DNA from: Eledone cirrhosa
Lineage: Eukaryota
NCBI GenBank assembly: GCA_964016885.1
Contig: OZ024740.1
Location: forward strand, 256,742,001 to 256,806,000
Direction: 5' to 3'
DNA length: 64,000 bases
The notes beneath the pieces are model-generated. The model had not been told where the DNA came from. It worked only from the letters and a program-made list of their open reading frames with translations, and ran no database searches. The position numbers were made by a program, and so were the translations under genes. Shown here piece after piece: positions 5,365 to 57,840 of the stretch; the stretch's first letter is position 1; each line of letters opens with the position of its first letter.

Positions 5365-5875
5365 ATGTAACCCAGTACAACCTGTCGCATGATCGGGTCG
5401 TCAGCGACTAAACCGGTAAACACACCAAGTTTACTTGGTGAGGAGGGTGCTTTTGGACACCCTGCAGGAGAAAACAAAAACCTGACAAAGGGCGGAAGAA
5501 CTCATAAGAATCAAAGTCTATCCAAAAATGTGTAAATATGTATATACACATGTACATATGTATGTATATGTATATGCATGTGTGCATGTGTATGTATATG
5601 CGCGGGGATATAGAAATAAGCGGGCTGGATACTCGATCCAGCGGTTGAACCACTGGGAGTGAAGGACCCTAACCATTATCAGGGCATTCTTCTAGGAGAA
5701 GGCAACTTAGGGAACTGGGATAACTCCGACATAAAACCTGCGGTTCAGTAGTTACTGATGATGTTGATCATTTCTTCTTTTTGGAGCTATAGCTACTGTT
5801 GCTCAGAGAGTCGGGTTGGCTCAGTGCACAGTCTTTCTTCACTTTAAAAAAAATCTTCACGCACAAGTATTTCAC
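5365..5875 (+). mobile_element. Dispersed repeat family B (probable non-autonomous RTE-related retroposon), diverged copy interrupted by a microsatellite
   Basis: Shares ACAACC...GCGACTAAAC...CTTGGTGAGGAGGGTG...TTTGGACA and TCTAGGAGAAGG with copies at 11460, 19880 and 46320. Confidence 0.7.
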
Positions 5876-11459: not shown

Positions 11460-12017
11460 TGTACAACCCGTCCCATGGTCGTGTCGTTGGCGACTAAACT
11501 GGCAACCCTACCAAGGTTTCTTGGTGAGGAGGGTGACTTTGGACATCCTGCAGGACTAAAAACAAAACCTGTACAGGGCAAAGGAGCTCTTAAGAGTCAA
11601 TGGCCATCCAAAATCACCGGGAGAGATGATCCCTTAGCCTTTGTCAAGGCAGAATTCTAGGAGAAGGAAAACTTTGATATAACACCTGCAACCCTGATGG
11701 TATCCAATGATGTTGACTTGCACTTCTTTTTGGTAAATATCATCTTGGTTAAGAGAGTGGGACTGGCTTTGTGCAGTGCCTTTGCTCACTATAAAAGCTT
11801 CACGGCACAGGCATTGCTTTATATCTGGAGATCTCACTGCACTTGTCGTCACATGGTACCATGGGCCCAGCACTATGTGTCAATAATTGTCACAAGTGTA
11901 GTGTTTGTACCAGAGTTTTCAAGTCGCTGGCTGGACTAAAATGTCACACTCGTTAAGGGTTCTCCTACATGGATATAAAGTAGTGGCCGTACTCGAAAAC
12001 GAGTTGGCAGCCACCAT
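11460..12017 (+). mobile_element. Dispersed repeat family B, about 560 bp (probable non-autonomous RTE-related retroposon)
   Basis: A near-identical inverted copy lies at 46320-46890. It contains TCTAGGAGAAGGAAAACT, a motif I recall from RTE 5' regions, and has no credible ORF. Confidence 0.75.
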
Positions 12018-12034
12018 GTGTGTATATACATACA

Positions 12035-16535: not shown

Positions 16536-18977
<2,442 letters not shown>

Positions 18978-23365: not shown

Positions 23366-23737
23366 ACACCCCGGATAAACTGTAAAACTAGAAACGTAGT
23401 CTATAGCATAAGATGTACAGAGGGTACTTGCAGAAACACGACAACAACATACATAGGTGAGACAGCTCGTAGCATAGGTGAAAGGATAGACCAACACTGG
23501 GGGGAACTAAAAGGACGAAAAAACGGGTCAGTACTATACGAACATGCTAGACAACATCATGACGGTAACATAGACAACATAGAAATTAGAATAATATCTA
23601 AACATAGGAATGACCCAGCAGATAGGCAAATCAGAGAGGCCAGTGAAATAGAAATTAGAAGACCAAAGCTAAACAGAAAGAATGAGTGGAACAACAACAA
23701 CACCCAAACAAACAACACTGACCTAAGAGAAGTATAA
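23366..23737 (+). mobile_element. PLE family P1 GIY-YIG endonuclease domain, stop-free 123-codon frame (missed by the ORF track because it lacks a start codon)
   Basis: Manual translation: [108 protein letters not shown]... It shows the VVY/YIG motifs, catalytic R, conserved H, E and LN. Confidence 0.9.
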
Positions 23738-24000
23738 ATAAATAAGTAAATTAAATAAAATAAAATAAGATAAATAAATACATACACAAGCACATAAACA
23801 CACACTAGTCACCCAGCAGACAACACTATACACACTAGTCACACATCACACATAACACTATACACACACGCAAACGCATGCGCAAAGAAGACAAAATAAA
23901 ATAAGATAAACAAACAAGCAAATAAATAAATAAATATATAGACAGACTGAACAAAAAAAATGGCGTAGACATACAACACAACAGGAGGAACAATGAATAT

Positions 24001-24066
24001 AACACCACTGACGATGTTGCAGATGTGCAACGAAAGATTTATGTAAACTATATATATATGTGTTTG
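24001..24066 (+). ncRNA. Hammerhead ribozyme motif in the PLE P1 3' region
   Basis: AACACCA-CTGACGA (24008-14)-T-GTTGCA-GATG-TGCAAC (6-bp stem II)-GAAA (24032-35)-GATTTATGTAAAC-TA. The stem-I partner TGTGTT is displaced by a short TA run. Confidence 0.65.
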
Positions 24067-24625
24067 TCTATATTGTATCTGTATTATTTTTGACCGCCGG
24101 TCAGTCAATGGCAACATTGAGGACCGAGTAAGCTAGATCGCAGATATATATATATAAAAGACAGCGAGAAGCGAAAACCAACCAAACAGTGAGTGTGTTC
24201 TGTTATTAATTCTGGCAATATTACGCAAATATGACCCTCCCCAAATATAACAATATATATATATATATATATATATATCATATATATATAATATATATTA
24301 TAAATATATATATTATAAATATATATCATATATATATTATATATATAATATCTATATATATTATATATATAATATCTATATATATATAATATATATAATA
24401 TATATATATTATAAATATATATATTATATATATAATATATATATTATAAATATATATATATAATATATATATTATAAATATATATATATAATATATATAT
24501 ATTATAAATATATATATATAATATATATATATTTAAATATATATATATAATATATATATATATTATAAATATATATATTATAAATATATATAATATATAT
24601 ATATTATATATATATATATCTAATA

Positions 24626-25612: not shown

Positions 25613-25939
25613 CTAGCAGTGGTACTCGGCGTTGCACGGGGTAAGGTATTTTGGGAGGGTCATGCTGTCAATAAAATCACACGCACCTCTAGATTTTCAC
25701 TTCAATTTATTATAAGTCTCTGGTTGGTTGGATACTTGCTTCGATAACCGGAAGTCTGTTTATATATAGTCAAAGGTCTGTTGTCAAACATTCTATGACT
25801 AGGTTTTTATTTTGTGTCTCTCTTTTGTTCTGTCCAACACCATCTTGCTTTTGTGTGTATTGGCAAACAAGATGGTGAAGGAAAATGGAGAGTCTCAAAA
25901 TAAAAACCTAGACACTGAGGTCATAGAATGTAATAATAA

Positions 25940-28592: not shown

Positions 28593-28872
28593 GGGGTCTA
28601 ATGATGACTTATCGCAAATCCCAGGAAATCCGCGTATAGGAGAAATACAAAAGATAGTACTAATGGGAACTGCCCATATACTAAGGAAGATTCTGTCAAT
28701 ATAAGTACATCACAAGTCTAAACACTAAAGATGCATGTGTGAGTATGTATGTTCTTTCTTGAACATGGCGGACCTTGTTGTCTCTTGAGGTCACTGGTTG
28801 TGACTTGGTGATAACTCGTATGAACATAAAGCAAGATGAATGCAACTGTAATAATAATAATAATAATAATAA
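28592..28872 (+). mobile_element. Extreme 3' end of an R4/Dong-like element between two (TAA)n tracts
   Basis: IPGNPRIGEIQKIVLMGTAHILRKILSI* is the typical C-terminus of this group, followed by a short UTR and (TAA)n. Confidence 0.75.
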
Positions 28873-28926
28873 AAGCAACAACAACAATGACTATATTAAC
28901 AATGTTCCATTTTGTATACTTTTCAG

Positions 28927-29072
28927 AAGGACGTGAATGTGTCAACTGCGGAGCAACATCTACCCCGTTGTGGCGGCGGGATGGAACGGGGCATTATCTA
29001 TGCAACGCGTGTGGTCTTTACCACAAAATGAACGGCTCAAACCGCCCACTCATCAAACCCAAGCGCCGTCTG
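28927..29072 (+). CDS. GATA1/2/3: Internal exon encoding the N-terminal zinc finger of a GATA1/2/3-class (grain/GATAc-like) transcription factor
   Basis: (E)[48 protein letters not shown] is a CX2CX17CX2C finger. Acceptor TTTTCAG ends at 28926 (phase 1) and donor GTAAGT starts at 29073 (phase 0). The 146-bp length and phases match the ZF1 exon of vertebrate GATA2/3. GATST and KPKRRL favour GATA123 over GATA456. Confidence 0.97.
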
Positions 29073-29727
29073 GTAAGTAGCAAATGATTTCTCATTTCAT
29101 TTCAACATTTTACTGTTTATTAACCCTTTTTAGTAGTACCAAAATTGCATGAAAACACCCCAGGCTCTACACTATTAAGCTGTTTATATTTAGCTAAATC
29201 CTTCCATTATTATTTCTCAATCCCTTCGAATTCTTGATTATTCTTAAAATACTTGAATGTCATATATGGTAACGAAAAGGTGAAAAAATAAAATACCTGA
29301 GAAACTCTTGAAGTAAAATCTAATGGATTGTTAAGTCAATCATCCTCAAAATAGGCATTTTTATTTGATTAATCTGAACATGTGTTCAAATACCATGGTA
29401 CAATCAAGAAACCATAGAGGTAATTACAGACACTAAATATGTATGTTAACTAAGTCTACAGGATATATATTTCAAAATATGAGAGCTCCTACGAGGTAGG
29501 AAATAACTGTTAAAATTAATCGGTCACTGTATCAAGTAGTTGAGAAAATTGAATAAATTACCCTAAGAGACGGAAAAAGGTGGACAGAATCCCCTACAAG
29601 GGAATTAAATTTCATATCACTTGAATAATAAAGGACTAGCATCCAAAACTTTATAACACTTTTCCAACGTTTTCAAAAGTCAAACTATTATGCTATTAAT
29701 GTGGAGTATCAATCTCTTCTATTTCTT

Positions 29728-31718: not shown

Positions 31719-32178
31719 ACGCAGTATATATTTTAATGCAGTGTGACATTGCAGTGAAAGTGCAGTCTGACTGGGAACATCTTCTCTCTTGATTAATGCT
31801 GGCATTTGTTTGATGGAGCATGCCATGCAAAGCCTGCTTCATTGCATCCAGCACACACGCGCACACACGCACACACACATAAACACACACATGCTGTTGT
31901 TGGGGACGATAATGATGACGATGTCGGTGGGGATGGCAGTGTGGGGGTTATAAAGAAAAACCGAAATGTACAAATAGCTGTAGGGTGAAGGTACTTGTGT
32001 AATTGATGACGGGGAAAATAGAGATAGAATAATGGATAATTATATATAACAAGCTGAATGAGTTTCGGCGTATAACTTAACGAAACTTAAGTACCTGTGT
32101 ATGTCACTGATGTAACTGATTATATATATATATATATGCGTATATATATATGTGTGTGTGTGGGGGGGTATGTAGGAT

Positions 32179-32460
32179 TGGCTTCTCGGGACTAGAACTG
32201 TCTCATTCGAAGGGAATAATCAGGAATGCTTTTTTTATGTGCCATTGTATTAATGTGTATATTTCTCTAAATATATTTTTTTCAAAGAATCACTGTTCTT
32301 AAAATCCCCTGGTCTATGACCACCCGTCTTAATCACCACCTTCCCCTAGCACCAGAAAACTAAAAAATTCCACCATACGACAATGACAGGTGGCTTTCCT
32401 GATGGTTTCCTTCGAATGAAACAGTTCTAGTCCTGTAGAAGCCATTTCTATATTAAATAT
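32179..32460. mobile_element. Hammerhead fold-back family copy with a ~160-bp spacer; + motif at 32391-32444
   Basis: TGGCTTTC-CTGATGG-TTTCCTTCGAAT-GAAA-CAG-TTCTAGTC-CTG-TA-GAAGCCA, with a diverged inverted partner at 32179-32229. Confidence 0.7.
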
Positions 32461-32469
32461 TGTATAAAC

Positions 32470-34416
32470 AACTTGTTACCGGACGAACAGAAAGGATGCC
32501 GAAGGAAGTCCCGTGGTACAAAAAACCAGTTTCTTATTGATAAGATGGTAATGAGGAATTGCAAGAGGAGGCATACTGGTCTTGCCATGGGATGGATAGA
32601 TTACAAAAAGGCGTTCGACATGGTACCTCATTCTTGGATAACCAAAAGCCTAGAGATCTTGAAGATGGTAGACAACATCAGAGAGCATGAATTCCTGGGA
32701 AACAGAGTTAACATCAGGTGGAGAATCCTTGGGAGGCGAGATGATCAAGAGAGGTATCTTCCAGGGAGATAGTCTGTTCCCTTTGTTGTTTGTCCTTGCC
32801 CTGATACTCCTGCCCGTCATATTGCGAAAATTGAGAGCAGCATACAAGCTAGAAAGAGGAGAGCTTACCATCAATTACCTCCTCTTCATGGACGATCTGA
32901 AAGTCTTTGGGAAGAGTGAGGAGGATTTGGATGTACTTGTTGACACTGTCCGTATTTTCAGCAATGTTATATGTATGGAATTTGGTGCTAATAAGTGTGG
33001 AGTCCTAGTGAGGAAGAGGGGGTAAATTGAGCAGAAGCAACGGAATCCAGGTACCAGCAGGTGAGATGATAAAGGAAATTGACACTGAAGTGGGATACAA
33101 ATATTTAGGTATTCTGGAGGCAGATGACATCAAGAACAAAAGAATTAAGGAATTGATAAGATCTGAATACATAAGGAGAGTAAGGAACATACTAAATTCA
33201 CATCTAAATAGTAGGAATGTCATAAATGCAGTAAATTCCCGAGCTGTGTCTATTATTAGATACAGTGCAGGAATTCTGAAATGGAATGTTGCTGAACAAA
33301 AAGAAATGGATAGGAAGGCTAGGAAGCTAATGACTATCTACAACATGTTCCACAAGAGGAGTGATGTCCATCGACTCTACTTAAAGAGATCTGAAGCTGG
33401 AAGAGGTCTTATCAGCATAGAGGACTGTGTTCAGATGGAGAAAAGCAGCCTGCACAAATATGTGGCTGACAGTAGGGAGCCAATGCTCAAAATTGTACTG
33501 AAGGATACCAGGGGATGTCCAAGGAGGAAATAACAACAAGGAGGAAGAGCAACCTTCATGAAAAATCCTTTCATAGCACCTTCTTTAAGAAAACGGAATT
33601 TAGAGATCCACAGACATGGAACTGGCTAAAAAGAGGAGACCTTAAAAAAAGCTACAGAAAGAATGCTAATGGCCCGCGCAAGAGCAAGCCCTCAGGACGA
33701 AGTGGGTGAAACACCATATTGACAAGGAAGAGGCTAGCTCACGGTGTAGTATCTGTGGCGAGAGAGAGAGGAGACTGTGGCTCACATTGTATCTGAGTGT
33801 AAACACCGAGCCCAGACTCACTATAAAGGCTGGAGACATGATGTGATGGGCAGGGTGATCCACTGGCGCCTATGCAAAGTAAACAATTTACCACTTTCTG
33901 AGAAGTGGTATGAGCATAACCCAGAGTCGGTGATAGAAAACGATCAGGTGAAGGTGCTATAGGATTTTAGGACACAGACGGACAAGAAATTAGAACACAA
34001 TAGGCATGACCTGGTGGTTTTGGACAAGGAAAAAAGATCGTGCCTGATTGTAGATGTAGCCTGCCCATTTGATACGAGAGTGCAAGAGAAGGAGAGGGAG
34101 AAAATTGACCGATACCAGGACTTAAAGTGGGAGTTACAAATGATTTGGAACTGTCATGAGATCATGGTCGTTCCGATTGTCATAAGAGCACTAGGTACTA
34201 TTTCAAAGAGTTTCCAAGGATGGTTAAAGAAGATTAGTCTGGCCTCGTTTTTTCGGAACACTTTAAAAGTCATGCATGCTGGGAACAGCAAGAACCCTCC
34301 AATACGTCCAGAATATCTGAGGCTGCAGTTAGTGGCTTGATATTCATTTCAACAAACTTTCCAGTTAACTAATATCAATGACTGAGACTCAAAGGGAAAA
34401 AGGGGAAAAAAAAAAA

Positions 34417-34448
<32 letters not shown>
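32470..34448 (+). mobile_element. R4/Dong-like non-LTR retrotransposon (RT, CCHC finger and restriction-like endonuclease), 5'-truncated and frameshifted
   Basis: Reads [82 protein letters not shown] and EKIDRYQDL, with a (TAA)n tail at 34419-34448. Confidence 0.93.
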
Positions 34449-34515
34449 GTGGAAGAAAAATTAATTTGCACGTACATGGTCATTCAGAGAAGAAAGTTCA
34501 TTTCTCTGGCCACCC

Positions 34516-34576
<61 letters not shown>

Positions 34577-34710
34577 TATATATATATTGGTGTGTGTGTT
34601 TGTGTATGCATTTATATATACATATATATGTATATATATAGAAGGGTGGCCAGAGAAATGAACTTTCTTCTCTGAATGACCATGTACGTGCAAATTAATT
34701 TTTCTTCCAC

Positions 34711-34742
<32 letters not shown>

Positions 34743-34797
34743 TTTTTTTTTTTTCCCCTTTTTCCCTTTGAGTCTCAGTCATTGATATTAGTTAACT
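34363..34797. repeat. Essentially perfect ~157-bp inverted repeat around a TA-rich spacer
   Basis: 34363-34518 is the reverse complement of 34641-34797. The ORF track shows the same [18 protein letters not shown] peptide on both strands. Confidence 0.95.
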
Positions 34798-34927: not shown

Positions 34928-35764
34928 TATACATAATTACATGTACATATGTATGTCAATATACATATACATATGTAAATATATAAATAAAAATATGTAC
35001 ATATATGTATATGCATATATATGAATGCATGTATTACATATATATGTGCGCGTGTGTGTGTGTATGCATATATATTTATATATATACATATATATATATG
35101 TATATGCATATATATATATATGTATATATATATGTATACATATATGTATACATATATTTGTATATATCTATGTATATAAATGTATATGTATATATATATG
35201 TGTTTATATTTATATATAAAAATGTATATCTATCACGATAAATTAACGGAGCCATAGACGCTCGTTATTCCCTGTCAATAATGTGCTCAAAGGAAAAGGA
35301 ATCCTGAGCTCTTTAAAATACAATATGTTGAAAAGGTAACACACTAAAGAGAGAGAGTGTGCCATCAATAAAACAGAGAAACCTACCAGTGTATGGAATC
35401 TATAACCTATGGAAGGCAGGGTAGACACACAATAATTAAAAATATAAATTAGAATGAATATACGCACCTCTATAACTATATAACACACGCGTACAAATCC
35501 AAAGAGATCTGTTTCGCTAAGAAGTTGTTGACTGAAATGGAGTAGCCCATGGTTCATCAGCGCATGCAATGCCATACATTTCAGACAACTCTAAGAGAAT
35601 TTAAAGCGATCGTCCAGCTACACGTGGGGGAGAGATGTAACAGCGTGTTTAGGGCAGTGAACCAGTGGTGTCGGAGGGGCGAGCTGCTAGAAAAGGCAGC
35701 CCCAAACCAAACAGAGATGTGTGCTCAACCAAACAGAGAGAGAAGAGAGACTGTTATAATATAT

Positions 35765-39261: not shown

Positions 39262-39415
39262 TCTTGTTTAGATGAAAGCGTCCATGTTTCACTTCCATAT
39301 AGCATTATTGGTTGAATTGTTACTTGGAAGAGTCTGATTTTGTTGTAGTTGGAAAAATTTGAGCGCCAAACTCGATCCATTTTGTTGCAAGCTGACCATG
39401 CGGCAATGAACGACA
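39262..39415 (-). mobile_element. RTE LINE fragment
   Basis: AAWSACNKMDRVWRS...IQPIMLYGSETWTLS. Confidence 0.75.
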
Positions 39416-40495
39416 GACCCACGGGGAGATCAATTGTTGTGTCGATTTCGGCTGAAACCGCCGGATGAAGATGATGATATAAATGTCTTATTCAGCTAAT
39501 GTAGAACCAGTATTATTATTTTTATTGTTATTTTTCATAACATTATTATACGTAATTAATAGGAAAAAATACATAAACACATATGTATCATAACACAACT
39601 AAAACCACAACTAACAACAACAATGCCAAAGATACATAGACATTCATAAAATAACGACTAACATCAGCACTACCAACAAAATACATAGACATATATATGA
39701 AATAACAAACATGACCACCACCAACAACAACACCAAAATACATTGAGACATACAAAATAACAAAATTTACACCAACACTACCACCATCACCACCAACAAC
39801 AAGAACAACAAAAGCTAAAAACAAGATTGCTACGATGGAAATGCCGATTAATTTAAAACCTAGTAGTGGTTGCGTTTGTTGTTGCTGTTGAATAGGTCAA
39901 TGTAATGGTGGTGGTTGTGTTGGTGTGGCGTGACTGTTAACCTACGCCCCCTGGTGGTATTAAATGACTATAACTCTTCATACCCACTGAACATGTTAAC
40001 TGATTGATAAGCTAAAGTCTAGAATAGATTTCCCTTGTATTTTTAGTTTTATACGTATATACATATACATGCATATATATGTCCTTATCATTTTGGCCAT
40101 CATTATTATGTTGTTGTAGTTGTTGTAATGGTGGTGGTAGTGGTGGTGGTGGTGAAGGTGTTGAAGCTATTGGAGGTGTTGTTGTTGTTGCTGGTGGTGG
40201 TGGTAGTGGATAAGATGTTCATAATGTTGGGATTGTTATATATGGTATAGTTTGGTCAGACATATTGAAAATATACACAAACACAAAATGCACGCACACA
40301 AAGACCAAATCTAGTTAACAAGAACAACAATCATTTTACAACAAATCGATTTAACAACGACTACAGTATTAAAAAGGAAAAAAAATAAACAAAGAATTCA
40401 CCGAACTGATCGATATTCTAGTTACACGTGAGCCATTTTTAATTTTAAGATTTGAAGAATTGAGAAAAATGGGCGTATATATATATGTATATATA

Positions 40496-40573
40496 AATTG
40501 CCTTGTCTGACGAACGAATGTGGACGTTTCTTGTATTCGTCTTGTTCGGGAAACATTTGGTAATGAGGTAATT
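40496..40573 (+). ncRNA. Type-I hammerhead ribozyme motif with an 11-bp stem I and extended stem II
   Basis: AATTGCCTTGT-CTGACGA (40507-13)-A-CGAAT..GGACG...CGTCT.GTTCG-G-GAAA (40550-53)-CATTTGG-TA^-ATGAGGTAATT. Confidence 0.75.
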
Positions 40574-40583
40574 ATATTGTATT

Positions 40584-40637
<54 letters not shown>

Positions 40638-40651
40638 ATGTATATATGTAA

Positions 40652-40684
<33 letters not shown>

Positions 40685-40694
40685 AGTGTATGTG

Positions 40695-40735
<41 letters not shown>

Positions 40736-40851
40736 GTGTGTGTATATATATATGCGTGTGTGTGTGTATGTATATATGTATATATATATATATAGATATT
40801 AATATATATACATGTGTGTGTGTATGTATATATATATATATATATATATAC

Positions 40852-40907
<56 letters not shown>

Positions 40908-40929
40908 GTATATATATATATATATATAC

Positions 40930-40990
<61 letters not shown>

Positions 40991-40995
<5 letters not shown>

Positions 40996-41640
40996 ATACT
41001 TGGGGAGGGTCATATTTGTGTAATATTGCCAGAATTAATAACAGAACACATTCACTGTTTGGTTGGTTTTCGTTTTTCGCTTCTGTGTCTTTTATATCGG
41101 TTAATTTAATTTATTCGGTCCTCAATGTTGCCATAGACTGACCAACGGTCAAACATACAGATACAATATAGACACAAACACATTGCATTGTATGTCTACG
41201 CCATCTTTATTTAGTCTGTTTATATATTTATTTATTTGTTTATTTATTTATTTTTGTTGTCTTCTTTGCGCATGCGTTTGCGTGTGTATAGTGTTTTGTT
41301 TGATGTGTGTTCGTGTTTGGGTGACTGTATTTGTTAATGTATTCTATCTTTACTAGTGTGTGTTTATATTGTTTGTTTATATTGTGCTTGTGTATGTATT
41401 TAATTATTTATCTATTTATTTATTTATTTATTTATACTTCTCTTATGTCAGTGTTATTTGTTTGGGTGTTGTTGTTATTCCATTCATTTTTTTCTGTTTA
41501 GCCTTGGCCTTCTAAGTCCTATTTCACTGGCCTCTCTGATTTGCCTATCTGCTGGGTCATTTCTATGTTTAGATATTATTCTAATTTCTATGTTGTCTAT
41601 GTTACCGTCGTGTTGTTGTCTGGCATGTTCGTATACGAAC
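40991..41640 (-). mobile_element. PLE family P1, second copy (C-terminal GIY-YIG fragment and 3' region, hammerhead segment deleted)
   Basis: Minus-strand [49 protein letters not shown] matches the 23366 frame, and the terminal segment is the same as at 24252 and 18977. Confidence 0.88.
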
Positions 41641-41659
41641 ATGCCAGACAACAACACGA

Positions 41660-41782
41660 GCCGGTGCCACAGTAAAGCCAGAGTCCTGGTGTTTCTCCAG
41701 TGCAAGGCGCATACAATAGTCCACTACGATGATAAAAAGGTATGGAGCCAATGTATCTCCCTGGAGCACTCCAGCCAGTATA
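41660..41782 (-). mobile_element. RTE-type RT fragment
   Basis: [25 protein letters not shown]. Confidence 0.8.
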
Positions 41783-41913
41783 TTTATATATATATATATA
41801 TATATACGTGTATATATATATATATATACGTGTATATATATATATGTACATGTGTATATATATATATATATACACACACATACACTAACATATATATATA
41901 TACATATATACAT

Positions 41914-41984
<71 letters not shown>

Positions 41985-41993
41985 AAACAATAT

Positions 41994-42071
41994 AATTACC
42001 TCATTGCCAAAGGTTTCCCGAATAAGACGAATACAAGAAACGTCCGCATTCGTTCGTCAGACAAGGCAATT
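41994..42071 (-). ncRNA. Type-I hammerhead motif, inverted partner of 40496-40573
   Basis: The reverse complement reads AATTGCCTTGT-CTGACGA-ACGAATGCGGACG...CGTCTTATTCGG-GAAA-CCTTTGG-CA-ATGAGGTAATT. Stem III (CC/GG) is intact but the U of the cleavage triplet is changed to C. Confidence 0.65.
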
Positions 42072-42203
42072 TATATATGCACATATATATACGCCCATTT
42101 CTCCCAATTCTTCAAATCTTAAAATTAAAAATGGCTCACGTGTAATTAGAATATCGATCAGTTCGGTGAATTTTTTGTTTAATACTTTCCTTTTATATAT
42201 ATA

Positions 42204-42246
<43 letters not shown>

Positions 42247-42250
42247 TATA

Positions 42251-42288
<38 letters not shown>

Positions 42289-42616
42289 TATATATATGTA
42301 TATATGTATATATATATATATGTATATATATATGTGTATATGTATATATATATATATGTATATATGTATATATATATATATGTATATATATGTATATATA
42401 TATATATATATATATGTATATGTATATATATATATGCATATATGTATATATATATATATATATATCTAAATAAATAAATTATACAATTATCAAAGTTGTG
42501 TTCAAATCAATCTTACATGGAGCTATTTCTCTTACTGGTAATAAGGTAATAGGAAATTACTGACCTTCCTGTTTATAAATAGTATTATTATTACATATAT
42601 ATGACATGGTTTCGGA

Positions 42617-46219: not shown

Positions 46220-46319
46220 GCATACATATAAATATATATATATACATACATATAAATATATATATACATACATATAAATATATATATAAACATACATATA
46301 AATATATATATACATACAT

Positions 46320-46900
46320 ATGGTGGCTGCCAACTCGTTTTCGAGTACGGCCACTACTTTATATCCATGTAGGAGAACCCCTACCGATGCGCTGAACGAG
46401 TGTGACTTTTTAGTCCAGCCAGCGACTTGAAAACTCTGGTACAAACACTACACTTGTGACAATTACTGACACATAGTGCTGGGCCCATGGTACCATGTGA
46501 CGACAAGTGCAGAGAGATCTCCAGATATAAAGCAATGCCTGTGCCGTGAAGCTTTTATAGTGAGCAAAGGCACTGCACAAAGCCAGTCCCACTCTCTTAA
46601 CCAAGATGATATTTACCAAAAAGAAGAACAAGTCAACATCATTGGATACCATCAGGGTTGCAGGTGTTATATCAGAGTTTTCCTTCTCCTAGAATTCTGC
46701 CTTGACAAAGGCTAAGGGGTCATCTCTCCCGGTGATTTTGGATGGCCATTGACTCTTAAGAGCTCCTTTGCCCTTTGACAGGTTTTGTTTTTAGTCCTGC
46801 AGGATGTCCAAAGTCACCCTCCTCACCAAGAAACCTTGGTGGAGTTGCCAGTTTAGTCGCCAACGACCCGACCATGGGACAGGTTGTACTGGGATACATG
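46320..46900 (-). mobile_element. Dispersed repeat family B, inverted near-identical copy of 11460-12017
   Basis: The ORF track gives almost the same peptides on the opposite strand (MVSNDVDL..., MLGPWYHVTTSA...). Confidence 0.88.
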
Positions 46901-54333: not shown

Positions 54334-54405
<72 letters not shown>

Positions 54406-55267
54406 TGTAATAAACAACATAAGGCAATTATTCCATTTACCAGTGGTTTCTTAAAAGCAAAAGATTTTGCTTTCAATCCTCAGAATGAAAAAAATCCTGG
54501 TGTTTATTGAATTTGGATTTTAAAAACAAAAACCTATATATATATGCATACACATGCACACACATACATATATATATATATATACTTATGTATATGCATA
54601 CACATGCACACACATACATATTTGTATACATACACATGTATACATATGCGATAAAAACATGTATGAATTGTTTGTTGTTTCCGTTACTTTTTTTTAATCA
54701 CGTCACAGTGAATCATTGATTAGATTTATCTATTTTTTAAAAGCTATTTTCATTTTATTTTTCGTTAGTAATTAATGATTAATAAATGAGTGAATCTATT
54801 AATTAACACCAGTTACAATAAGTTTAGTTTTAAGGTGAGGTTAGTTCTATTGAATAACTGCTTGCAATTCTCGCCATATTACTATTTTTTCCAATTAACT
54901 ACTCTGCGTGTTTAGTAGTTAATTATACCATTATTACCATTATTTTTTAATTAGCGGGACACAATTATCTACACTGTTGTTTTTTACTGATTATTGCATT
55001 TATAACCTTTTTTTTTATTATTATTCATATTATTATGGCGTTCGCGTTGTTGTTTATTTGTTTATTATTCATTTATCTATTTATATTAAGTATTTGAAGA
55101 TTTCATTGAGCTGATTATACAGAACAATTGCCGGTCCAAAAATTAGGTATTAGGATACGCTATCAATTTTAAAGTAGTGACTATGTCACTTTCTTCCTTT
55201 CAGCTCCTGATTATTACTGGAATTCTATAAGAATTCTGCTACTATAATTTTCGGCGGAAGCATGCGT

Positions 55268-55305
55268 GGCTCTGATGAACGCCAACCAGCGTGAAACAGT
55301 CAGCT
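55268..55305 (+). ncRNA. Minimal type-I hammerhead motif
   Basis: GGCT-CTGATGA-ACGC-CAACCA-GCGT-GAAA-C-A-GTC^-AGCT. It has a perfect 4-bp stem II and a GUC triplet, but stem III is too short for a monomer. Confidence 0.6.
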
Positions 55306-55459
55306 TCTCTCCCTTCTTACGCCGAAAAGAAGTAAGTGGCATAGTCACTACTTTAAAACTGTTAGCGTATGGTCTTCTGAATGTTTTTAATGAAACATAC
55401 AGTATATTGCCAAATATACTATATATACATTCATGTATACATCACTATTTCAGAGCACC

Positions 55460-57564: not shown

Positions 57565-57769
57565 CGGGAGGCGGCAACTATTAAAAAAAGATACTCGGTA
57601 CCTCAGTACTCAGTACAGCTGTTAAAAAAAGGTACTAAGTATAGGCATATACATTTTATTACAGAAATGACTTCTACAGGACTAGAACTGCTTCATTCGT
57701 AAGAAATCATCAGGACGTTCCAGATGATATCACGAATGAAACGTTTGTAGAATTCATTTCTATAATAAA

Positions 57770-57770
<1 letters not shown>
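57565..57770 (-). mobile_element. Hammerhead fold-back family copy (palindrome 57654-57770; minus-strand motif at 57669-57720)
   Basis: The reverse complement reads GTC-CTGATGA-TTTCTTACGAAT-GAAG-CAG-TTCTAGTC-CTG-TA-GAAGTC, with a degraded inverted partner at 57718-57770. Confidence 0.7.

Positions 57771-57840
<70 letters not shown>

Follow-up and report, generated by a model that had tools for sequence, protein, structure and literature searches.

A 64,000-nucleotide stretch of microsatellite-rich animal DNA (hereafter the window) carries, within a (TA)n/(TG)n tract, a fragment of a Penelope-like element (PLE), a short snap-back copy of its 5' end and an internal piece of a LINE, all of them lying between two inverted arms. 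We consider it very probable that this is a local, non-mobile scar at a single locus whose right arm was copied from the left flank, a reading that is common to the models with one event and with two. Narrower and more tentative is the proposal that the 1.2 kb from 40992 to 42207 are the scar of a single PLE that inserted in (TA)n while changing template several times, to which we give a little under an even chance. The parts follow one another in this order, with coordinates counted from the start of the window:

40210..40495 (no strand): host single-copy DNA, of which 40364-40495 is the outer left arm, unbroken into the left flank
40496..40586 (+): copy of the very abundant hammerhead repeat, folding at 40496-40573, with changes of its own at 40544 (stem II) and 40555 (stem III)
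40587..40991 (+): mosaic A, (TA)n/(TG)n; the right arm clearly repeats 40587-40715 and perhaps also 40716-40991
40992..41633 (-): Neptune-like Penelope element truncated on its 5' side; keeps the last ~50 endonuclease (GIY-YIG) codons and the 3' UTR, with the 3' end on (TA)n
41634..41659 (+): snap-back, a 26-nt inverted copy of the PLE 5' end, giving a perfect 52-nt palindrome at 41608-41659
41656..41778 (-): piece from within the RT of a LINE with AP endonuclease (RTE-like), in the same sense as the PLE
41779..41856 (no strand): 78-nt mosaic of uncertain orientation; either left over from the target site or a shortened inversion of the distal part of mosaic A
41857..41982 (-): inverted copy of mosaic A 40587-40715; G0/C18; inverted score 46 against direct 15
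41981..42071 (-): hammerhead repeat again, inverted, folding at 41994-42071, with a cleavage-triplet change of its own at 42006
42072..42207 (-): inverted copy of host single-copy DNA 40364-40495; at its end the junction with (TA)n is slipped
42207..42476 (+): mosaic B, (TA)n/(TG)n; same polarity as mosaic A (G17/C4)

The inverted arms and their probable origin in the left flank

The arms, 40373-40584 (+) and 41983-42193 (-), are 92.9% identical over 212 nt, and 215 aligned sites hold 16 substitutions, namely 10 transitions and 6 transversions. An earlier reading of the sequence alone had included the adjoining microsatellite mosaic in the inversion, pairing 40370-40830 with 41780-42195; the arms stand, as does the mosaic at 40587-40715, which aligns with 41857-41982 at a score of 46 inverted and 15 direct, whereas the further extent to 40830 and 41780 is uncertain. 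The 78 nt at 41779-41856 have a polarity of G7/C3, resembling the + strand mosaic, and their direct and inverted alignment scores tie (both 22.5); the order of landmarks within them fits the inverted one, as in a continuation of the right arm by a copy starting near the nick. Beyond the hammerhead repeat, the copy at 42072-42207 shows 114 matches, 10 substitutions and 1 gap against 40371-40495. Mosaics A and B agree in strand polarity and are best read as halves of one tract split by 40992-42207, with mosaic B likely to be the other half of the original target tract. Between the arms, 8 derived changes fall on the right and 2 on the left, a difference that does not reach significance (p=0.11). 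Nor does the right arm carry the imprint of ADAR, a reading rejected in view of its 4 A>G and 3 T>C changes without strand bias.

Contigs of all four listed public runs (X1, X3 and X4 from one sample, X2 from a second organism, B) were aligned at 80% likeness to 40210-40586 only, with 40470-40501, around the 5' end of the hammerhead repeat, left out. No RNA run was among those listed, which carries no information on expression. The contigs divide the arm in two: the outer ~125 nt look single-copy and the inner ~90 nt are very abundant. A single X1 contig spans 40210-40517 with 0 differences and a flat depth of 4.9, arm and flank alike, and record 9 of X2, which covers 40211-40469 with 21 other letters and 13 gap letters, is colinear across 40370. 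Since the outer arm is single-copy and colinear with its flank, the arms are not termini of a dispersed element. The suggestion of a fold-back element with captured passengers is not supported, as the outer ~125 nt of the arm lie at flank depth in X1 and, in organism B, run on colinearly past the arm boundary into the left flank; inverted repeats dispersed up to their outer end, which mark fold-back elements and MITEs, are not what is seen at single-copy depth.

The polarity of the duplication follows from organism B, for which no change from the left arm is listed at any of the five evaluable differing single-copy sites (40382, 40383, 40385, 40394 and 40421, three of them in a gapped A-run); this agreement makes the right arm the derived copy, and the right arm is likely to be a local inverted copy of the left flank. 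Host DNA, resident hammerhead repeat and mosaic were copied once, inverted and within the same tract, so that the arms are neither fold-back termini nor independent insertions. Independent insertion, which had been named as the outcome that would overturn the earlier proposal, is not borne out, for the arms share host single-copy DNA and an idiosyncratic mosaic. Among the pieces (32 of 1259) and loose ends (24 of 81) listed for the four runs, no contig had right-arm letters in the single-copy part. Depth over the single-copy left flank is zero in X3 and X4, which is not proof of absence; as these runs come from the same sample as X1 and also lack the left flank, cover is thin and the missing right-arm contig carries little weight. 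A second X2 contig lies over ~40362-40401, starting near the arm boundary; it may represent the orthologue of the right arm or match an A-rich stretch by chance.

Elsewhere in the window, 34363-34797 is a cargo-free fold-back consisting of a 156-nt flank, a (TA)n mosaic, an identical inverted copy (156/156) and (TA)5; the identity of its arms points either to a recent event or to an artefact. Further local inverted repeats of 50-136 nt, at 70-88% identity, lie at 55155-55370, 57647-57777, 32170-32453 and 25796-25914.

A hammerhead-like fold within an abundant repeat

Hammerhead-like folds occur at 40496-40573 (+) and 41994-42071 (-). On paper each arm forms a hammerhead of type I, in which stem I spans 11 bp and stem II is in two parts, as had been read from the sequence; 4 of the stem I pairs are G-U, and the core boxes CUGANGA and GAAA stand around three stems in both arms. 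In place of the G10.1-C11.1 pair, both arms have A opposite G at position 10.1/11.1, followed by a C-G pair. The left arm keeps the GUA triplet and has a mismatched stem III, whereas the right arm has GCA, which departs from the NUH/A15.1-U16.1 rule; the family majority has both the triplet and a paired stem III.

The letters of the family were taken from the same contigs. In X1, the letter at 40555 is another one in 142291 of 142587 cases, restoring stem III, and that at 40544 in 39676 of 39934, restoring a stem II pair; in X2, 4741 of 6071 convert a stem II G-U to G-C. No family change at or above 5% is listed at the cleavage triplet (40561) or the first core box (40507-40513) in the contigs of X1-X4. 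Since the majority letters restore stem III and keep the triplet, the defect of each arm is a private change. The right arm, unlike the left, has the family-majority letters at 40544 and 40555. The intact consensus predicted earlier is thus matched by the majority letters of the public contigs, in stem III as well as in the cleavage triplet. Of the complementary defects that had been claimed, the differences themselves are real (an A/G mismatch in left stem III, GCA for GUA on the right), but a functional reading is unneeded: both hammerheads are likely to have decayed independently after the duplication, by ordinary decay, and we infer that hammerheads on opposite strands cannot complement one another within one transcript.

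Summed depth over the hammerhead repeat runs from 4.8e3 to 2.8e5 (X1/X3/X4), climbing from ~40500 to 2.3-2.8e5 in X1, X3 and X4 and to 1.2e5 in X2, and increases toward the (TA)n-ended 3' side; the repeat is found in both organisms. Relative to the flank, the depth is 3,800-47,000x in X1 and 340-13,000x in X2, a sum that is no copy number and is to be read only as thousands to tens of thousands of copies. The (TA)n end, together with a related motif at 54483, suggests from sequence that the ~90-nt repeat may derive from a PLE.

A strict hammerhead descriptor, composed post hoc with the motif already known, matches the window at 3 sites and none of 100 block-shuffled windows. With Rfam, the hammerhead family is absent among the 5 matches per arm (E<=10), and the window as a whole returned only sub-threshold microRNA-type matches on microsatellites among 150 of 358 matches listed. 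Folding z-scores of the arms are weak (-1.0 and -1.5), the active hammerhead fold lies 3.3-3.5 kcal/mol above the MFE, and RNAalifold reports covariation in 0 of 28 pairs, a count to which two arms lend no power.

A further hammerhead-like motif at 54395-54495 (-) has a 7-bp stem I, an 8-bp stem II and a GUA triplet, and its 3' tail resembles the arm repeat and ends in (TA)n. A third, at 35480-35572 (-), with an 8-bp stem I and a long stem III, came from the loose scan only and was missed by the strict descriptor. A metagenome scan gave 0 loci with a 24-nt pattern and at least 118 with a 16-nt pattern, 0 of which match the arm or the insert by blastn; 9 of the 16-nt loci have a loose core box upstream and none is arm-like by eye, so that they were set aside as chance matches.

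The Penelope-like fragment

The PLE 3' fragment that had been placed between the arms is confirmed by matches of 40992-41633 to 23535-24252 and to both arms of a palindrome at 18612-18977. The longer copy, 23366-24252, has (TA)n at both ends and an open 123-codon GIY-YIG frame; its endonuclease has an atlas match of 0.96 to a cluster in which 42% of members carry GIY-YIG, and ORF 23366-23734 contains the C-terminal GIY-YIG endonuclease with CCHH. The PLE piece of the locus is 85% identical in amino acids to this ORF, and a Pfam search on the piece itself returned 0 families. With the endonuclease as query, a word-based protein search recovered 0 of 49 candidates, and an exhaustive one gave 946. 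RT motifs lie upstream in 7 of the 10 long homologues examined, and a cysteine linker (CXnCxxC) in 25 of the 32 homologues with enough upstream sequence, the core having been found by pattern in 51 of 150 homologues with a spacing of 2-10 allowed; the copies in the window are truncated, without RT or linker. This linker is common to Neptune, Nematis and Naiad. The upstream RT motifs and cysteine linker of the homologues make the PLE Neptune-like, and the clade assignment thus rests on the homologues.

Each of the three window loci of this PLE has its end on (TA)n, two of the three have a 5' inversion, and the copy between the arms is 3.9-4.5% diverged from the copies at 18.6 kb. The region 18612-18977 is a 97.7% palindrome of the same PLE 3' end with a TA-rich centre, flanked by (TA)n on the right and by a short unique stretch and then (TA)n on the left. 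A degenerate hammerhead in the PLE 3' UTR near 41125, suggested by eye, was not supported by motif scans.

The snap-back and the LINE piece

At the 5' end of the PLE stands a perfect 52-nt palindrome, 41608-41659, centred on TATA, which the sequence-only reading had not reported. It is followed by the RT piece of about 120 nt (41659-41778) that had been noticed before, and protein homology establishes its origin in an AP-endonuclease LINE: it corresponds to residues 588-628 of its best homologue, P0002, at 90%. Its 90% identity with a predicted protein of Octopus vulgaris makes an octopus the likely source of the window, with which a repeated SINE-like sequence would agree. P0002 carries Exo_endo_phos_2 and RVT_1, that is, an AP endonuclease and an RT in one ORF; its motifs suggest that the LINE may belong to the RTE clade. 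The match to P0002 extends to 41656, 3-4 nt into the end of the snap-back, and at the other end the preceding codon overlaps (TA)n by ATA, ~3 nt; both overlaps come from protein homology only, with the chance of an Arg codon at ~6 in 64. No DNA source for the LINE piece was found within the window. A remnant of an RTE-like thumb at 39267-39401 (-), 1 kb to the left of the arm, was considered as the source and rejected, since it represents a different region of the ORF and is only 42-51% identical in amino acids to homologues of the LINE piece. By established TPRT logic, an internal piece without the LINE 3' end is not normally primed by its own element, and as this piece is internal and has no 3' end, normal priming by its own element was impossible.

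One insertion or two

Read from the 3' junction of the PLE, the PLE, the snap-back, the LINE piece and the arm are each, on the + strand, the complement of a plausible template. In a single insertion, a Neptune-like GIY-YIG endonuclease would nick the tract near 40991 and the RT would copy ~640 nt of PLE RNA onto the + strand; the cDNA end would fold back at TATA and copy 26 nt of itself, anneal by 3-4 nt to an AP-endonuclease LINE RNA and copy ~120 nt, and then anneal by ATA in (TA)n and copy back 350-430 nt of its own primer strand, comprising mosaic, resident hammerhead repeat and ~130 nt of host DNA; TA microhomology would finally link this end with the tract's far half. The template would thereby have been switched three times, to its own cDNA, to LINE RNA and to target DNA. 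The chimeric multi-template retroposition that had been put forward earlier holds for the interior, with its PLE cDNA, snap-back and internal LINE piece and the short overlaps at both joints; it includes the right arm only possibly.

The main competitor, which we regard as plausible at somewhat better than one chance in three, is that fold-back synthesis at a (TA)n break placed an inverted 40364-40715 at ~41857 in the course of repair, and that the PLE, snap-back and LINE piece separately entered the central (TA)n. The fold-back at 34363-34797 has the same geometry without cargo, which means that PLE cDNA is not needed for it; secure arm homology ends at 40715/41857, which leaves 276 nt between it and the PLE junction; and the switch of polarity at ~41856 leaves 78 nt of direct-polarity mosaic (41779-41856) between the LINE piece and the inverted copy, each of which counts against a single event, as does, weakly, the right-arm contig missing from the single-copy part in four runs. 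PLEs target (TA)n in any case, the three window loci ending there, and yeast breaks show fold-back templated insertions, mostly of 5-34 bp (PMC11724301). Against this, one tract would have been hit twice, and only 2 of 42 counted TA tracts have such a fold-back; the landmark order in the 78 nt agrees with inversion; and no age difference separates the parts, the snap-back having 0 changes in 26 and the arms 16 in 215 (Fisher p=0.23), ages that are compatible with one event. The derived arm sits on the 5'-junction side of the PLE, which favours one event over two by a factor of 2 only.

The remaining explanations are improbable to differing degrees. An assembly or library artefact, either a fold-back chimera or haplotypes misjoined at (TA)n, would suit the fact that no right-arm contig was seen in X1, X3 and X4 among the pieces listed, the identical, chimera-like arms of the 34.4-kb fold-back, and the long microsatellites flanking every junction; the arms nevertheless differ at 16 of 215 sites, mostly by transitions, and the right arm, with family-majority letters at 40544 and 40555, is elsewhere unlike both X1 and organism B. 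These differences, together with the majority letters, form the pattern of an old duplicate, and we hold an artefact to be unlikely. We give somewhat less credence to hammerheads set head to head by 5' inversion of a PLE (pLTR inverted repeats) and later split by a second PLE, or to a hammerhead repeat that inserted twice independently: near PLEs, pairs of hammerheads on opposite strands are reported at distances of 100-700 bp (PMC4209133) and PLEs typically have inverted 5' copies (PMC8557442), of which 18612-18977 is an example in the window, yet both arms contain the same host single-copy DNA and the same idiosyncratic mosaic, that such events are not expected to copy. Least credible of all is a mobile composite unit, fold-back or MITE-like, with hammerhead-bearing terminal repeats and passengers; the inverted termini do end in TA and the hammerhead part is highly repeated, but the outer 125 nt are single-copy and flank-continuous in two organisms, and the main contig of organism B has no left boundary at 40370.

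Comparison with known systems

In its structure the locus compares with TPRT 5' junctions of the complex kind or with templated insertions made by fold-back; it is neither a MITE or fold-back element nor a retrozyme array. At R2 5' junctions, extra-template joints are described, as is a snap-back in which the cDNA itself or target DNA close by is copied (PMC11371274), and the present locus resembles R2 (PRINT) in that the cDNA 3' end would prime on itself or on nearby target and foreign RNA would be added at the 5' junction (PMC11371274). It differs from R2 in having a GIY-YIG PLE and, as extra template, an internal LINE RT piece where that of R2 is U6 (PMC11371274), as well as in the three chained switches proposed from one old locus. 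For L1, chimeras of two RNAs and locally templated insertions are reported (PMC11702581; 10.1101/2024.08.27.596794); like complex L1 insertions, which also include target-site inversions, the locus combines pieces of two RNAs in the same orientation, microhomology joints and duplicated insertion-adjacent DNA (PMC11702581; 10.1101/2024.08.27.596794). In contrast to L1, the flank copy is 350-430 nt long and inverted, L1 templated insertions being typically <250 bp (10.1101/2024.08.27.596794), and there is neither a poly(A) nor a readable target-site duplication, which a (TA)n target makes impossible to read. With fold-back templated insertions at breaks, the locus shares an inverted break-adjacent copy inserted via microhomology (PMC11724301), although the copy is ~10x longer and seated in (TA)n (PMC11724301).

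Among PLEs, (TA)n targeting and 5' inversions are known (PMC8557442), and the fragment agrees with those of the Neptune clade in its C-terminal GIY-YIG with CCHH, 5' truncation, 5' inversion and (TA)n target, as well as in homologues with upstream RT and cysteine linker (PMC8557442); unlike full Neptune PLEs, it keeps only ~50 codons and the 3' UTR, linker and RT lying outside the window copies. Internal priming by the PLE RT is known, and the steps of PLE integration are described as still unresolved (PMC11167929).

Dispersed single hammerheads and opposite-strand pairs near PLEs have also been reported (PMC4209133; 10.64898/2026.07.22.740005; PMC7229834). The arm motif is like PLE hammerheads and non-LTR retrozymes in being of type I with a long bulged stem II, a nucleotide after position 9, a short stem III and many dispersed single copies (PMC4209133; PMC7229834; 10.64898/2026.07.22.740005), and unlike them in its 11-bp stem I, 3-bp stem III and non-palindromic loop, in the A opposite G where G10.1-C11.1 is usual, and in its lack of a tandem array (PMC4209133; PMC7229834). 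The tandem head-to-tail units of non-LTR retrozymes are absent at the locus, whose two copies are inverted. In O. vulgaris, PLE and RTE families are recently active, and hammerheads go unmentioned in the main text of that report (PMC13282606); a giant squid paper gives only 235 Rfam hammerhead-1 matches. A description of the abundant hammerhead family was not found in the literature searched, and supplements of the bioRxiv papers might include cephalopod hammerhead families.

Taken alone, the single locus is of little weight, being a real, old and complex insertion scar and a new example of known junction types. It is also a compact natural record of snap-back, extra template and local templated inversion, previously measured mainly for L1 and R2 and found here beside a PLE. 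More useful as leads are the very abundant hammerhead-like repeat with its intact majority core and the recurring flank fold-backs at (TA)n tracts. A bolder combination, which we consider speculative and rather unlikely, would have a template-jumping PLE RT that accepts its own cDNA, foreign LINE RNA and target DNA; nicks in (TA)n that routinely yield flank fold-backs, making microsatellites local inverted-repeat factories in octopus-type genomes; and a hammerhead family not described before, numbering perhaps 10^4 copies or more, in which stem II starts from an A-G step and the intact majority core might cleave as a monomer.

Other features of the window

The frame 28830-29087 (+) is one that we take to encode a GATA-type zinc finger, so that a GATA gene may contain the locus or be close to it. 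A dispersed repeat pair of 574 nt, at 95% identity, occupies 11461-12021 and 46316-46889, with older relatives at 5365 and 19872.
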